From Pirellulales bacterium (GTDB lineage: Bacteria; Planctomycetota; Planctomycetia; Pirellulales; UBA1268), in contig JBIIDT010000001.1 in the NCBI GenBank assembly GCA_044238145.1, positions 15,172-79,171 on the forward strand: a stretch of 64,000 bases of DNA. The letters are read 5' to 3'. Below the pieces are notes generated by a model that saw only the letters and a list, made by a program, of their open reading frames with translations, did not search any database and was not told the origin of the DNA. Shown here piece after piece: positions 2,388 to 38,642 of the stretch. The translations under genes were made by a program, and so were the position numbers. Positions within the stretch are counted from its first letter, which is position 1, and each line of letters opens with the position of its first letter.

Positions 2388-3275
2388 TCAGTCGGGGAAT
2401 TTCCGGCTGCGGACCGCCTCGCGCGGAAAGTCCTCGGGCACCGGCAGCGACACCGTGCCCGTCGCGGCCCATTCGGTGCCGCGCTGGAAGGTCGTCATGA
2501 AGCCGACGCACTCCATCGAGTAGTCGCCGTGCCCCATCGGCGTGTGGAACACGCGGCCCTTGCCGTAGTCGATCGTCATGATCATCGGCTCGTGGCGGCC
2601 GGTCTTCGCGGAGTGGGCCGTGGCCAGCACCCGCATGTTCACGGCGGGGCCGCGGAGGCTGTCGTAGAGCTCGTCCTTGGCGTGCATCCACCGGGACGGC
2701 ATGCCCTTGGTGATGGGGTGCTCGCCGTCACGGATCACGACCGGAAACTCGGTCTGCGGCCCGTGGCTGCCGCCGGGCCCCGGCGACTCGTCGCGGACGA
2801 GCTTCCCCGCGTCGTCGTAGAAGACGTAGGGGCCGCTCTTCTCGTTGCGGCCCCCCCAGCCGCCGAGGCCGATCATCTCGTTGAAGGCCGGCCAGTCGGG
2901 GAACGAGTTGTCGGCGGCATGCACGACCACGAGGCCGCCGCCGCCGCGGACGTAGTCCTCGAGCGCCGCCCTGGTCGCGGCGGGCCAGGGCGCCGCGGCG
3001 TGGCCGAAGTTGCTGACCACGACCGCGTAGTCGGCGAACCGCGGCTTGAAATCCGGGTCCTCGCCCTTGGGGGCGTGGGTCACGACGTCGACGCGGAACC
3101 GCCCCGTGTCCTCGAGAAACGTCCGCATCATGCGGCTGGTCTTCGGCCAGATGGCGTGATTGTTCTGGCCGTCGACGATCAACGCCGCGAGCGGTTCCGC
3201 GGCGCGGGCTGGGTTCATCGTGGCGCTCGCCAGCGGCAGGACGACGAGAAAGGCGAGCAGACGGATCGACAGCAT
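2388..3275 (-). CDS. ThuA domain-containing protein, secreted
   Basis: ORF 2388..3404. Start chosen at MLSIRLLAFLVVLPLASA (signal peptide, ATG at 3275). Body motifs ALIVDGQNNH..YAVVVSNF..GGGLVVVHAADNSF..TKGMP.W..DELY..HTPMGH are typical ThuA. Confidence 0.75.
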   Translation of the reverse strand: MLSIRLLAFLVVLPLASATMNPARAAEPLAALIVDGQNNHAIWPKTSRMMRTFLEDTGRFRVDVVTHAPKGEDPDFKPRFADYAVVVSNFGHAAAPWPAATRAALEDYVRGGGGLVVVHAADNSFPDWPAFNEMIGLGGWGGRNEKSGPYVFYDDAGKLVRDESPGPGGSHGPQTEFPVVIRDGEHPITKGMPSRWMHAKDELYDSLRGPAVNMRVLATAHSAKTGRHEPMIMTIDYGKGRVFHTPMGHGDYSMECVGFMTTFQRGTEWAATGTVSLPVPEDFPREAVRSRKFPD

Positions 3276-15672: not shown

Positions 15673-15841
15673 GGGAGATGATCCGGGACGGGGAGCCGCC
15701 GGGCGGGCGCACGGCGATCCCTGCCGGTGGTATCGGTCGTGCCGAACGGGCGGCGTGAGCAGAACGGGCCGACTCTGCAGCCGGCCCGTCGAGCGTGGAA
15801 ACTTGGGCAAGCGGGGCGACTGCCCCCGAGCCCTGCTGGTC

Positions 15842-15972
15842 GGGGCTGCCCATGCCGCCTCGCCTGGACGTTCACTGCGCCCATCCTGGGCTCCGTTCAC
15901 TCGATGCCGGCTGCGCTCCGGCATCGTGCCTGCGCTGGCCGCCAACGCCAGCTCGCCGGCACGGGCAGCCCC
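15842..15972 (+). repeat. Structured intergenic repeat, copy A (most divergent copy)
   Basis: Terminal inverted repeat GGGGCTGCCCATGCC ... GGCACGGGCAGCCCC. The interior aligns to copies at 34183 and 37339 (GGACGTTC.CTGCGCCCATCCTGGGC..GGCTGCGCT..GGCATC..GCTGGCC). Confidence 0.75.
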
Positions 15973-16022
15973 TCCCGGATCCGGTCGGCGGGCGGGCCCT
16001 CGAGAAGGTGGCCGGGTGCCGC

Positions 16023-33713: not shown

Positions 33714-34157
33714 ATGAAGAGCCGCATCGCCACCGTCGTGTCGCTTCTGTCCATTGCCGTCGCCTGCTCGGCCATCGTCGTCTCGGCGGCGGTCAAGGAG
33801 CCGAAGGACGCCAAGTGCCCCGTGTCGGGCAAGGGCTGCAATCCCGACAAGAGCGCCGACTTCGCTGGTGGCAAGGTGTACTTCTGCTGCGGGAACTGCG
33901 CCGGCGCTTTCGAGAAGGACTCCGCCAAGTTCGCCGCCAAGGCGCACCAGCAGATGGTCTCGACCGGCCAGCTCGTGCAGAAGGGCTGCCCCTTCAGCGG
34001 TGGGCCGGTGAAGGACGGCACGAAGATCATGATCGGCGACGCTGAGGTCGGCTTCTGCTGCCCCAACTGCAAGGGCAAGGTCGAGAAGGCCGCGGCCGAC
34101 GAGCAGGTGACCATGGTGTTCGGGAAGATCGAGAAGGGCTTCGCCCCGGCGAAGTGA
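33714..34157 (+). CDS. Exported protein with two YHS/TRASH-like Cys motifs
   Basis: ATG at 33714 with GGAGAGG upstream. Signal/TM segment MKSRIATVVSLLSIAVACSAIVV. Two modules: CPVSGKG..GGKVYFCCGNCAGAFEKD and CPFSGGPV..AEVGFCCPNCKGKVEKA. Confidence 0.6.
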   Translation: MKSRIATVVSLLSIAVACSAIVVSAAVKEPKDAKCPVSGKGCNPDKSADFAGGKVYFCCGNCAGAFEKDSAKFAAKAHQQMVSTGQLVQKGCPFSGGPVKDGTKIMIGDAEVGFCCPNCKGKVEKAAADEQVTMVFGKIEKGFAPAK

Positions 34158-34182
34158 CCCGAGCGGCGGGGCTGCGAGGGTC

Positions 34183-34314
34183 GGGGCTGCCCATGCCCCG
34201 TCGCCGGACGTTCGCTGCGGCCCTCCAGGCCTTCGCTCTCTCGGAGCTGGCTGCGCTTCGGCATCCATGCCTTCGCTGGCCAGCTACGCCGGCTCTCAGG
34301 GCATGGGCAGCCCC
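34183..34314 (+). repeat. Structured intergenic repeat, copy B
   Basis: Perfect 15-nt terminal inverted repeat GGGGCTGCCCATGCC ... GGCATGGGCAGCCCC. The interior is about 90% identical by eye to copy C. Confidence 0.8.
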
Positions 34315-34433
34315 TCCCGGTGCGTCGTGCGGAGGGGAGAAAGGGTGCGAATCGCGTCGTGAAAATGGCCTAGGGCAGGGGGCGCGAACGTGAAATACTC
34401 CGCAGGGGGCCGACGGGCTCCGTGGAGTTTTTC

Positions 34434-36537: not shown

Positions 36538-37299
36538 ATGGCCGAGCGGTTCGTCGTCCTCGGGGCGAGCAACGTGTCGCGGGGCCTCGCCCGCCTGACC
36601 GCGACGCTGCGAGCCCGCGCCGCGGGGCCGGGCGACCTGTTCGTGGCGGCGGGCCACGGCCGCGGCTACGGCGTCAACACGCGCGTCGCCTGGCGGCGGC
36701 TGCCGTCGATCCTCGCCAGCGGCCTGTGGCGAGCGCTCGAACGGGAGGGCGTGGCGGCCCCGGCGGCCCTCGTGACGGACGTGGGCAACGAGCTGCTCTA
36801 CGGCCTCGGTGTCTCGGCCGTGGCTACGGCGGTCCGCGACGCTGTGGAGCGGCTCCGTGACCGGGGCGGCCGCATCGTGATCACGGGCCTGCCGCTGGCG
36901 GGCATCGCCGGCGTGGGGCGTGTGCGGTATCGCCTCCTGCGCACGCTCTACGTGCCTGGCTGCCTGCTCTCGATCGGCGAGCTCAAGGAGGCTGCCAGGT
37001 GGCTCGACGACGAGCTGCGCGCGATCGCCACCGACACCGGTGCCACGTTCATCGAACAGCCAGCCGACTGGTACGGGTTCGACGCGCTGCACGTGCGCCG
37101 GCCGCTCCTCGACACGTTCTGGCGACGGGTCTGCGATGCCTGGGGGCTCCCGGTGGCGACCGCTCGACCGCAGCCGTCGCTCACGGAGTGGGCCGTGCTC
37201 GGTTCACGAGCCGCGGAGGTGCGATCGCTGGCCGGACGGACGCGGCTTACGCGGCAGCCGGTCGTCGAGCAGGATGCATTTCGCGTGTGGATGTACTGA
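36538..37299 (+). CDS. Hypothetical protein, SGNH/GDSL-hydrolase-like fold suspected
   Basis: ATG at 36538 within ORF 35569..37299. Starts MAERFVVLGASNVSRG. Later TDVGNELLYG and D.LH resemble SGNH blocks I, III and V. Weak call. Confidence 0.4.
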   Translation: MAERFVVLGASNVSRGLARLTATLRARAAGPGDLFVAAGHGRGYGVNTRVAWRRLPSILASGLWRALEREGVAAPAALVTDVGNELLYGLGVSAVATAVRDAVERLRDRGGRIVITGLPLAGIAGVGRVRYRLLRTLYVPGCLLSIGELKEAARWLDDELRAIATDTGATFIEQPADWYGFDALHVRRPLLDTFWRRVCDAWGLPVATARPQPSLTEWAVLGSRAAEVRSLAGRTRLTRQPVVEQDAFRVWMY

Positions 37300-37338
37300 C
37301 GTCCGTGGTGCTGCGGCCTACTCGCCCAAACCGGCTCC

Positions 37339-37467
37339 GGGCTCCGGTGCCCCGTCGCCGGACGTTCGCTGCGCCCATCCTGGGCTTCGCTCACTCGGAG
37401 CTGGCTGCGCTGCGGCATCCATGCCTTCGCTGGCCAGCTACGCCGGCTCTCAGGGCACGCGGAGCCC
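37339..37467 (+). repeat. Structured intergenic repeat, copy C
   Basis: Terminal arms GGGCTCCGGTGCC ... GGCACGCGGAGCCC are self-complementary with a 1-nt bulge but differ in sequence from the arms of copy B. The interior is near-identical to copy B. Confidence 0.8.
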
Positions 37468-37553
37468 GAAGCCTCCGTCAACGAGTTTGATTCGTTCGAG
37501 GAAGGCGCGGGGAGAGCTGGCGCTGCACGACAGGCGATCGTCGCCCCGAGCCT

Positions 37554-38642
37554 TTACAGCACGGGCAGCGAGGGCAGCGGGGGGCGGGCGGCGCTCGTCG
37601 CGGCGAGGTTGCCCACGAGCCGCTCGCAGATCGCCTGCAGGTAGGGGCGGGCGGCGGGATCGTCGTAGTTGGCGGCCGTGCGGCCGGCGTCGCCGTGCTC
37701 GCGGATCGGGATCTGAAGCGGCACCTCGCCGAGGAACGGGATCTCGAGTTCATGGGCCGTCCGCTTGGCGCCGCCGGAGCCGAAGATGTCCCAGCGCTTG
37801 CCGGTGTCGGGGCAGACGAAGAACGCCATGTTCTCCACCATGCCGAGGACGGGGATGTTGACCTTCCGGAACATCGCGATCGCCTTCGTGGCGTCGAGCA
37901 GGGCCACGTCCTGCGGTGTGCAGACCACGACGGCGCCGGTCAGCGGCAGGACCTGAGAGAGCGTCAGCGCGATGTCGCCCGTGCCCGGGGGCATGTCGAT
38001 GACGAGATAGTCGAGCGCACCCCAGAGCGTGTCGCGGAGCATCTGCGTGATGGCGCCGTGCAGCATGGGCCCGCGCCACACGACCGCCTCGCCGGCCGGC
38101 ACGAGGAAGCCCATCGACATCACCGGCATCGAGCCCGCGCCGACCTCGAGCCGCATGGGCACGATCTTGCCGTTATCGACTTGCGGCCGGCCGGAGAGGC
38201 CGAGCAGGTGGGGAACGCTCGGCCCGTAGACGTCGGCGTCGAGCAGGCCCACCTGGCTGCCGGCCCGGGCCAGGCCGATGGCGATGCTGGCGGCGATCGT
38301 GCTCTTGCCCACGCCCCCCTTGCCGGAGCCGACGGCGATCACGCTCTTCGCCTCGAGGCCGATCTGACCGAGCTTCACCGGCGGGCGGTCGTGGGGCCGG
38401 ATCGTGATCCGGACGTCGCGCACGGCCGGGAAGCGGGCCCGAAGGAGCTCCTCGATGCGGCCCCGAGTGGCGGGCCAGAGGATGGCCGAGTGGGTCGTGA
38501 GCCCGACGGCGACGGCGAGCGAGTCGGCCGCGGCGTCGACCTCGAGCACCTGGCCCATCTCGGTCAGCGGCCGGCCCGATTCCGGGTCGGCGATGTCCGC
38601 GAGCACGGCGGTCACGGAGGCGCGGTCGGGAGGCGTGCTCAT
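37554..38642 (-). CDS. apbC: Mrp/NBP35/ApbC-family Fe-S cluster carrier ATPase (DUF59 N-domain plus P-loop)
   Basis: In-frame start MSTPPD at 38642 within ORF 37554..39161. Deviant Walker A GSGKGGVGKST. Motifs DAD.YGPS, DMPPGTGD, and C..D.G (FFVCPDTGKRWDIFG). The start overlaps the nuoN stop (ATGA at 38639-38642). Confidence 0.85.
   Translation of the reverse strand: MSTPPDRASVTAVLADIADPESGRPLTEMGQVLEVDAAADSLAVAVGLTTHSAILWPATRGRIEELLRARFPAVRDVRITIRPHDRPPVKLGQIGLEAKSVIAVGSGKGGVGKSTIAASIAIGLARAGSQVGLLDADVYGPSVPHLLGLSGRPQVDNGKIVPMRLEVGAGSMPVMSMGFLVPAGEAVVWRGPMLHGAITQMLRDTLWGALDYLVIDMPPGTGDIALTLSQVLPLTGAVVVCTPQDVALLDATKAIAMFRKVNIPVLGMVENMAFFVCPDTGKRWDIFGSGGAKRTAHELEIPFLGEVPLQIPIREHGDAGRTAANYDDPAARPYLQAICERLVGNLAATSAARPPLPSLPVL

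Follow-up and report, generated by a model that had tools for sequence, protein, structure and literature searches.

A probably replication-linked, REP/ERIC-like family of branched palindromic repeats in uncultured Planctomycetes

Introduction

In the 64-kb stretch of a Pirellulales genome analyzed here (the window), three similar segments occur between genes. This raises the question of what kind of element they represent and how it is maintained. The original prediction described them as a three-copy repeat of about 130 nt with terminal inverted repeats, either REP/MITE-like or a structured RNA family. In our reading the three segments belong to a non-coding, non-autonomous and replication-linked palindromic repeat family of REP/ERIC-like type, with a putative mobilizer and a population that is quiescent in this genome. 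We assign a probability of roughly 60% to this reading. The evidence for it and for its alternatives is given below.

Results and discussion

Three copies of the repeat in the window

The three intergenic segments are present where they had been predicted, and the covariance model R1 matches all of them. A scan of the whole window with R1 gave 151 bits for 34175-34325 (copy B), 129 bits for 37330-37479 (copy C) and 126 bits for 15834-15983 (copy A), and nothing significant beyond these copies. Their pairwise identity is 80-91%. All three are located on the + strand and outside of gene calls, in agreement with the earlier description.

Copy B, taken as the full structured unit GGGTC-GGGG...CCCC-TCCC, covers positions 34179-34318 of the + strand (R1 E-value 6e-29). 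It is located 25 nt past the stop (34157) of a gene described as YHS-like, a label that agrees with Pfam (TRASH/YHS-like). On the other side lpxB is found, 104 nt further on, at 34422. The gene just upstream of copy B (33714-34157) encodes a small protein with weak TRASH, YHS and zinc-finger matches, the best of which is PF24273 with 28.6 bits. In the lpxB leader (34375-34424) the motif GGCCTAGGGC...GAAATACTCCGC-loop-GCGGAGTTTTTCATG is kept in most of the relatives examined, and the remaining spacer is unalignable. The stem of this motif reaches to the start codon, and the stretch may therefore be a regulatory leader hairpin.

Copy C (37334-37472, + strand) is a variant with changed terminal arms (GGGCTCCGGTGCCCC / GGGCACGCGGAGCCC), whose 5' extension CTCGCCCAAACCGGCTCC pairs with GAAGCC at the 3' side. 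It occupies a convergent gap, in which one gene ends at 37299 and a Mrp/NUBPL ATPase gene ends at 37554. The gene before copy C had been called SGNH-like; it has no Pfam match and this label is not confirmed. Copy A (15838-15976, + strand) lies between the stop of a GHKL ATPase gene (16023) and the start of mlaE (15672), both on the - strand and both as predicted and borne out by Pfam. It is antisense to the GHKL ATPase-mlaE transcription unit. No coding match was found for the element, and the spurious open reading frames noticed earlier in the window are accounted for by it.

Copy number and distribution in the family

The host genome comprises 3.36 Mb in 164 contigs (97.7% complete, 71.8% GC). 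A ClpB-like protein encoded in the window shares 82-83% identity with proteins of Planctomycetaceae MAGs and of Aeoliella, which places the host among planctomycetes close to Pirellulales. At the level of the whole genome the number of three copies does not hold, since an iterated nhmmer search gave 92 copies, 78 of them full length, with 49 on the + strand and 43 on the - strand (about 27 per Mb). Many copies are located at contig ends, which explains assembly breaks in these MAGs.

By BLAST, the element was found in 24 of 24 genomes of the same genus and in none of 16 genomes of other families. With the covariance model, 85 of the 101 genomes examined from the same taxonomic family gave matches, distributed over 11 of 12 genera. 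It is present in all genomes of g1, g18 and g86 (13/13 each), g85 (6/6) and g90 (5/5, with few copies), in 12/13 of g87, in 4/14 of g19 and in 0/1 of g82. An order-wide covariance-model search with stricter filters gave no matches in 29 other families. Copies in other genera reach bit scores at least as high as those in this genome. This family of uncultured Planctomycetes has a lineage-wide and long-lived repeat population, with diversified copies and a stable consensus.

Conserved core, fold and covariation

The predicted element is real, and its conserved unit is slightly longer than the 130 nt first estimated. Conservation spans about 143 nt, from GGnTC-GGGGYTGCCCRTGCC to GGCAYGGGCARCCCC-TCCC (GGnTC-GGGG...CCCC-TCCC), and the flanks outside of it are at background level. 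Against shuffled sequences the z-scores of the copy B fold are -5.5 (+ strand) and -6.5 (- strand), which excludes a chance fold. For the consensus structure each copy was folded and its base pairs were projected onto the alignment. RNAalifold on a plain MAFFT alignment had given only fragments of the fold and was replaced by this structure from per-copy folds. The consensus fold has four parts. A long stem closes the structure and a short one, CCGG/CCGG, lies inside it; a side hairpin carries a TCC loop, and a third arm terminates in a second TCC-loop hairpin.

These parts can be assigned on the + strand of copy B. The closing stem is formed by the 5' arm GGGGCTGCCCATGCCCCGTCGCCGG (34183-34207) and the 3' arm CCGGCTCTCAGGGCATGGGCAGCCCC (34289-34314), the latter seen in the sequence, the fold and the R1 match. 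The terminal inverted repeat GGGGCTGCCCATGCC / GGCATGGGCAGCCCC is perfect over 15 nt, as had been described. The nearly invariant junction motif CCGGACGTTCGC occupies 34204-34215, and its columns are invariant or at least 90% conserved among 70 copies. The side hairpin GGCC-CTCCA-GGCC with the conserved TCC loop (34214-34236) is marked by covariation and by invariant loop letters. The third arm (34245-34285), based on fold and covariation, contains both nested palindromes reported for this copy, AGCTGGC..GCCAGCT around the GGCAT-CC-ATGCC hairpin with the second TCC loop.

The terminal inverted repeats of the element measure 15-25 nt, the paired arms reaching about 25 nt. Both arms contain GGGGC-N7-GCCCC, which is foldable alone, and both also pair together; the centre of about 80 nt is itself conserved and structured. 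A subclass including copy C has a stem which is 5 bp longer (GGCTC...GAGCC) and a 5' extension CGCCCAAC(C)CGGC.

The structural covariation that had been proposed as a check was found. In 70 copies 85.4% of the cells are paired, compared to 76.3 +/- 0.3% in 500 shuffles. Double changes, in counts that include inheritance within subfamilies, occur in 31 of 48 pairs (16.7 expected) and in 288 cells (106 expected). In controls with slid partners the pairing is only 36-46%. In helix 1, 17 of 20 pairs change on both sides across copies. Pairs 48-59 and 49-58 of the side hairpin are swapped between GC and CG in 14-15 copies, with the T and C of the loop being invariant. The third-arm pair 92-101 is CG in 35 copies, GC in 28 and AU in 3, and another typical pair is UA in 29, CG in 26 and GC in 9 copies. 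While the stems covary in this way, the junction CCGGACGTTCGC and the TCC loops are invariant or almost so. Hence, what was found is neither a coding sequence nor an element of only three copies without covariation, but a non-coding family with many copies and a covarying structure.

Several partial or modified forms were observed in this genome (G000). On contig C94 (9439-9688), upstream of one complete copy, there is a tandem array of three to four 'restarts' of the 5' arm (CTCGGGGCTGCCCACGCCCTCTCGYCGGACGTTCGYTGCG), each of 40 nt. At several other sites the 5' arm is found alone, with a length of 32-49 nt. Two copies share a hairpin insert of about 30 nt, CGACCAATCCGCCTGCGGCG(R)(M)TCGGTGCC (C150:25199-25230 and C32:38922-38951), which has opposite orientation in the two copies, one per TCC loop. 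Full-length matches to this insert were found nowhere else in this genome. Its half-site GGCACCGAWTC resembles palindromes flanking the Y1 transposase gene in the related genome G194.

Position relative to genes

The position of the copies was analyzed on a gene map made with our own codon log-odds caller (2631 genes, 90% coding). The copies occupy 35 convergent, 49 tandem and 3 divergent gaps, and in one case the copy overlaps a gene start that is itself doubtful. From the number of gaps, about 15 convergent, 58 tandem and 14 divergent would be expected (p 4e-9), and from gap length about 13, 48 and 26 (p 5e-14). In convergent gaps the 5' end of the element is located 9-59 nt from the co-directional stop in 33 of 34 cases, and the 3' side is more than 64 nt away in 17 of 34 (p 1e-5). 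The five head-to-head doublets of this genome follow the same rule, with the 5' end near the stop.

The strong bias to gene 3' ends and the short distance to the co-directional stop are points in favor of an RNA module used by the host. Such a module could be a 3'-UTR stabilizer, a terminator-like insulator or a multicopy reverse-strand RNA with two GGA loops (CAGGAUGG / CUGGAGG) as binding sites for a protein, for example CsrA. However, copies in tandem gaps are randomly oriented relative to transcription (21:22), so that no one strand is consistently within the mRNA. A function as intrinsic terminator was rejected, as the defining U-run right after the GC-rich hairpin is absent on either strand of the listed copies; the hairpin is flanked by TCCCGG on the one and by GACCC on the opposite strand. 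The Rfam 15 covariance models gave no match at E <= 1 on either strand of 15700-38000.

Strand asymmetry and orientation along the chromosome

The two strands of the element are not equivalent. In the model orientation the non-canonical cells comprise 121 C.A or A.C versus 29 G.T or T.G, a four-fold excess of mismatches becoming G.U on the reverse strand. The model strand contains 42% C and 30% G, and in 68 of 71 copies the reverse strand gives the more stable fold, with a mean gain of 10.8 kcal/mol. One-sided mismatches together with a better reverse fold are a classic sign of selection on one folded strand, either RNA or single-stranded DNA. For the RNA module, this excess and the invariant TCC/GGA loops are further favorable points, as is a putative csrA gene in the genome: on contig C161 (23311-23574), outside of the window, an open reading frame of 88 aa starting with MLVLSRQRDESIMIGDNIVV encodes a CsrA-like protein.

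The orientation of the copies is related to GC skew. For 58 of 83 copies (Mann-Whitney p 3e-4) the strand agrees with the sign of the local skew, the + strand going with positive and the - strand with negative skew, and no relation of orientation to the local gene-strand bias was found. When skew was taken at third codon positions and averaged between + and - genes, the agreement was 55 of 78 copies (p 4e-4; by contig p 9e-4). The contig of the window is skew-positive throughout and carries 5 of its 6 copies on the + strand, which explains the common orientation of all three window copies. In two other species (G074 and G019, analyzed with raw skew in 20-kb pieces) 29 of 43 and 24 of 37 copies point in the same direction; a per-locus vote in these two genomes was not significant (p 0.11). 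For the three genomes pooled, 111 of 163 copies agree with the GC skew (about 2:1, p 4e-6).

Under the usual polarity of GC skew relative to replication, which is assumed for the host organism, the weaker-folding C-rich strand would be located on the lagging-strand template. The bias would fit a fork-directed insertion, as for IS200/IS605 elements and REPs (PMC6006769). It would also fit a preferential loss of copies whose strong hairpin forms on the lagging-strand template. With random orientation in tandem gaps, an orientation that tracks GC skew instead and no Rfam match, the second option of the original prediction, a structured RNA family, is not favored. We consider an RNA module used by the host to be unlikely.

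Turnover and age of the copies

The nearest relatives and several metagenome contigs also carry a copy at site B, the gap separating the TRASH gene from lpxB, but most of the genus has none there. In a comparison of this genome with G007 the copies at this site are 91% identical, whereas the four-fold sites of lpxB show 62% and the flanking spacer 50% identity. The conservation of the core at 91% versus 62% for neutral sites between species also counts for the RNA module, and could equally be due to purifying selection at the host level on each copy. In another comparison, of the close strains L181 and L184, lpxB is 96% identical, with 89% at four-fold sites, yet the copies at site B are only 70% identical. 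Here the left flank is identical up to ...GGCTTC and the differing block extends about 30 nt past the 3' end of the core.

For six copies of G007 the syntenic sites in this genome are empty, and the occupied gaps of G007 are about 190 nt longer than the empty ones, not 143 nt. At site C, the relative L188 has the orthologous copy and a second, inverted copy, the latter being absent here. Where copies are replaced or absent between close relatives the flanking genes are unchanged, which argues against the RNA module. Exact empty sites were searched at 20 orthologous lpxB loci, 18 G007 loci and 80 metagenome loci, with no pair close enough for reading the insertion ends. The spacers differ by more than the element, and therefore exact ends and duplications could not be read from those loci.

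Within this genome the median identity is 79% for all pairs and 90% for the nearest paralog, with a maximum of 95.3%. Young copies were found in relatives, with 96-98.5% identity in G022 and 100% in G071. At loci L237-L251 of G022, a composite of about 350 nt joins the core to a 5' extension of 52 nt and to another, unrelated hairpin of about 130-165 nt. This second hairpin has a fold of -75 kcal/mol, and the whole is a BIME-like mosaic unit. In G071 the 100% identical pair (L253/L254) is located on different contigs and has extra inverted arms of about 45 and 50 nt beyond the core. These outer arms are TACTACCGAGAGCA... and ...TGCTCCCAGTAGTA, and the unit ends with TA-CTACCGAGAGCA...TGCTCCCAGTAG-TA. 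The outermost TA...TA could be a target duplication. The flanks of the young G022 and G071 units are absent from this genome.

Insertion ends

A check for target-site duplications, which had been suggested along with the REP/MITE-like label, gave none, as the flanking dinucleotides do not covary as direct repeats. Most copies are flanked by TC...TC, and GA/TC, GC/TC, CC/GA and AC/GT occur as well; several of these pairs are complementary and extend the stem. In copies whose left dinucleotide differs from TC, the right side mostly keeps TC or is complementary to the left. TC...TC as a target duplication was ruled out, because the non-TC pairs do not match as direct repeats. In the tandem restarts on C94 the 5' TC is copied along with the element.

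These data bear on the possibility that the family is a classical MITE. Such an element would be derived from a DDE-transposon by internal deletion, and would have terminal inverted repeats next to a short target duplication such as TC or TA. The terminal inverted repeats of 15-25 nt, the TC...TC flanks of most copies and the identical G071 pair, whose TA ends are compatible with a TA duplication, are in line with such an origin. Against it stand the dinucleotides that do not behave as direct repeats and partly extend the stem, and the 5' TC that travels with the element. Moreover, no longer element with the same ends was recognized in this genome, in an end scan that is noisy from GC-rich chance matches, and the three inverted copy pairs inspected enclose housekeeping genes (transketolase, radical-SAM and others). 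Finally, stems that covary freely around fixed loops are the opposite of inverted repeats bound by a transposase. A classical MITE is thus very unlikely.

Search for a mobilizing enzyme

A search for a RAYT/IS200-like gene elsewhere had been suggested with the original prediction. No match to Y1_Tnp (PF01797) was detected in this genome, and none in G022, G042 and G013. Y1_Tnp genes are present in 45 of 101 genomes of the same family. At the genome level 43 genomes have both the gene and the element, 2 only Y1, 42 only the element and 14 neither, which gives an odds ratio of 7.2 (p 0.006) in a statistic that takes no account of kinship and owes its strength to one genus, g19. In genus g86, strong matches to the element are more numerous in genomes with a Y1 gene (p 0.015, among the matches listed).

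Both associations speak for a REPIN-type population served by a Y1 transposase (RAYT/TnpA-REP), with the gene lost in this genome and the copies being a decaying remnant. REPINs decay after loss of the RAYT (bioRxiv 10.1101/2021.07.10.451892), and a genome with neither a Y1 gene nor near-identical copies corresponds to this published pattern. The Y1 reading also agrees with arms that fold alone as GGGGC-N7-GCCCC, like an inverted REP doublet, and with the lack of a target duplication and the skew-linked orientation, as single-strand transposition predicts (PMC6006769).

However, at 16 Y1 loci in 14 genomes no element was found nearby, the sole match having 14 bits and an E-value of 0.4. In G047, which belongs to the same genus, the Y1 gene is flanked in a REPtron-like manner by GGGGACWGTCCCC palindromes (e.g., L150:2264-2381 and 3115-3145), and in G194 it is flanked by GATTCGGTGCC/GGCACCGAATC pairs. 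Thus, the resident RAYT-like genes have their own repeats. For class 3 Y1 proteins in Planctomycetes atypical flanking hairpins have been described (PMC6006769). In addition, the young subfamily of G022 occurs without a Y1 match, G019, G074 and G117 are copy-rich without a Y1 gene, and the co-occurrence depends on g19 as stated. Loss of a formerly serving RAYT is, in our judgement, an unlikely explanation.

The GGGGACWGTCCCC palindromes represent a classical REP family with 131 copies in G047, which are often clustered. They were not found in G000, G019, G022, G071 and G194.

Comparison with known repeat systems

The label REP/MITE-like was right in kind, as the element is a high-copy intergenic palindromic repeat with real covariation. 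Membership in these classes does not follow, since no target duplication was seen, neither an autonomous partner with the same ends nor a Y1/RAYT gene was recognized in this genome, and the RAYT-like genes of relatives are flanked by other palindromes. REPs have a size of 20-40 bp with GTAG or CGTC tags, and some were found in Planctomycetes (PMC3733652). With REP, REPIN and BIME elements the family shares the intergenic, high-copy palindromes that form long hairpins, the lack of target duplication, and populations that persist and diversify in a lineage with a fixed consensus. Head-to-head doublets (five here) and mosaics with other repeats, like the G022 composite of about 350 nt, are common to both. 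A further probable common point is the replication-linked orientation, which single-strand transposition would predict (PMC3733652, PMC6006769, bioRxiv 10.1101/2021.07.10.451892). Each arm is a small palindrome, and for this reason the unit resembles an inverted REP doublet. In contrast to REPs and REPINs, the unit has 143 nt and three arms instead of a stem-loop of 20-40 nt or a simple doublet, and its foot is GGnTC|GGGG ... CCCC|TCCC without a GTAG or CGTC tag. Unlike in REPIN-RAYT systems, this genome is without Y1, and the Y1 genes of relatives are never flanked by the element (16 loci). In the full-text literature on REP and MITE elements of Planctomycetes only general REP surveys were found, and the 143-nt family was not found described there.

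ERIC (IRU) elements are imperfect palindromes of about 127 bp which occur in tens to hundreds of intergenic copies, often in transcribed 3' regions. They are found in either orientation with a consensus conserved across genera, and are reported to duplicate a TA target. No dedicated transposase is known for them. The present element shares the size class, the copy number, the intergenic 3' placement in either orientation and the cross-genus consensus with ERIC, to which it is likened by architecture only. It differs from ERIC in occurring in another phylum and in showing no duplication here, and the ERIC sequence appears unrelated. A branched fold with invariant TCC loops and a skew-linked orientation are not known as features of ERIC.

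Bacterial MITEs such as Correia/NEMIS, RUP and Nezha are characterized by target duplications and by ends common to a resident insertion sequence. A length of 100-200 nt, terminal inverted repeats, the non-coding nature and strain-variable copies are general features of these MITEs that are also found here. In contrast to them, neither a target duplication nor an insertion sequence with the same ends was found here, and the stems covary while the loops are fixed. Sites of attC type, retrons, CRISPR repeats and TnpB/IscB guide RNAs were rejected as candidates: the copies are dispersed, there is no adjoining protein gene and the defining motifs are absent.

Possible mechanism of spread and maintenance

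The element functions like a REPIN or ERIC population, yet it lacks what defines REP-RAYT systems and duplication-bearing MITEs. For the preferred reading of a non-autonomous, replication-linked repeat, the following mechanism can be proposed. The unit would spread or be retained as DNA, with the fork exposing it as a single-stranded hairpin during replication. A putative trans-acting enzyme would act on this hairpin by recognizing the invariant loops and the junction, and such recognition would hold the family consensus steady even as neutral sites become saturated. The population of this genome would be quiescent, with no copy pair more than 95.3% identical and no Y1 transposase. Copies would persist where they are least harmful, at the 3' ends of genes, and more often in the orientation that places the C-rich, weaker-folding strand of the element on the G-rich strand of the chromosome. 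Points against this reading are the gap difference of about 190 nt instead of 143 nt, the 91% identity of the site-B copies of this genome and G007, the one-sided mismatches with the better reverse fold, and a skew association of only about 2:1.

A further reading is distinctly unlikely. It takes the element as a vertically inherited, RAYT-independent replicator or domesticated module, active as a fork-tied reverse-strand hairpin that is recognized via two invariant GGA loops and the GCGAACGTCCGG junction and that carries neighboring sequence. Alternatively, the reverse-strand RNA would be a genome-wide sponge of CsrA type. As carried neighboring sequence, the 350-nt G022 composite and the variable 3' tail of about 30 nt exchanged between L181 and L184 can be cited, and the tie to the replication fork would account for the skew-linked orientation. 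If this RAYT-independent reading were true, it would mean a new mobilization or maintenance system for bacterial repeats.

Significance for the Planctomycetes family

For the maintenance of long-lived repeats in compact bacterial genomes, an explanation exists in just a few proteobacterial systems (REPIN-RAYT). The family described here offers a large, branched and family-wide repeat in uncultured freshwater-type Planctomycetes without a linked transposase. In practical terms it can be used as a taxon-specific marker. Its consensus has outlasted the saturation of synonymous sites, and its orientation probably follows replication and not transcription. The repeat family is a candidate for a different mobilizer or for a function maintained by the host.
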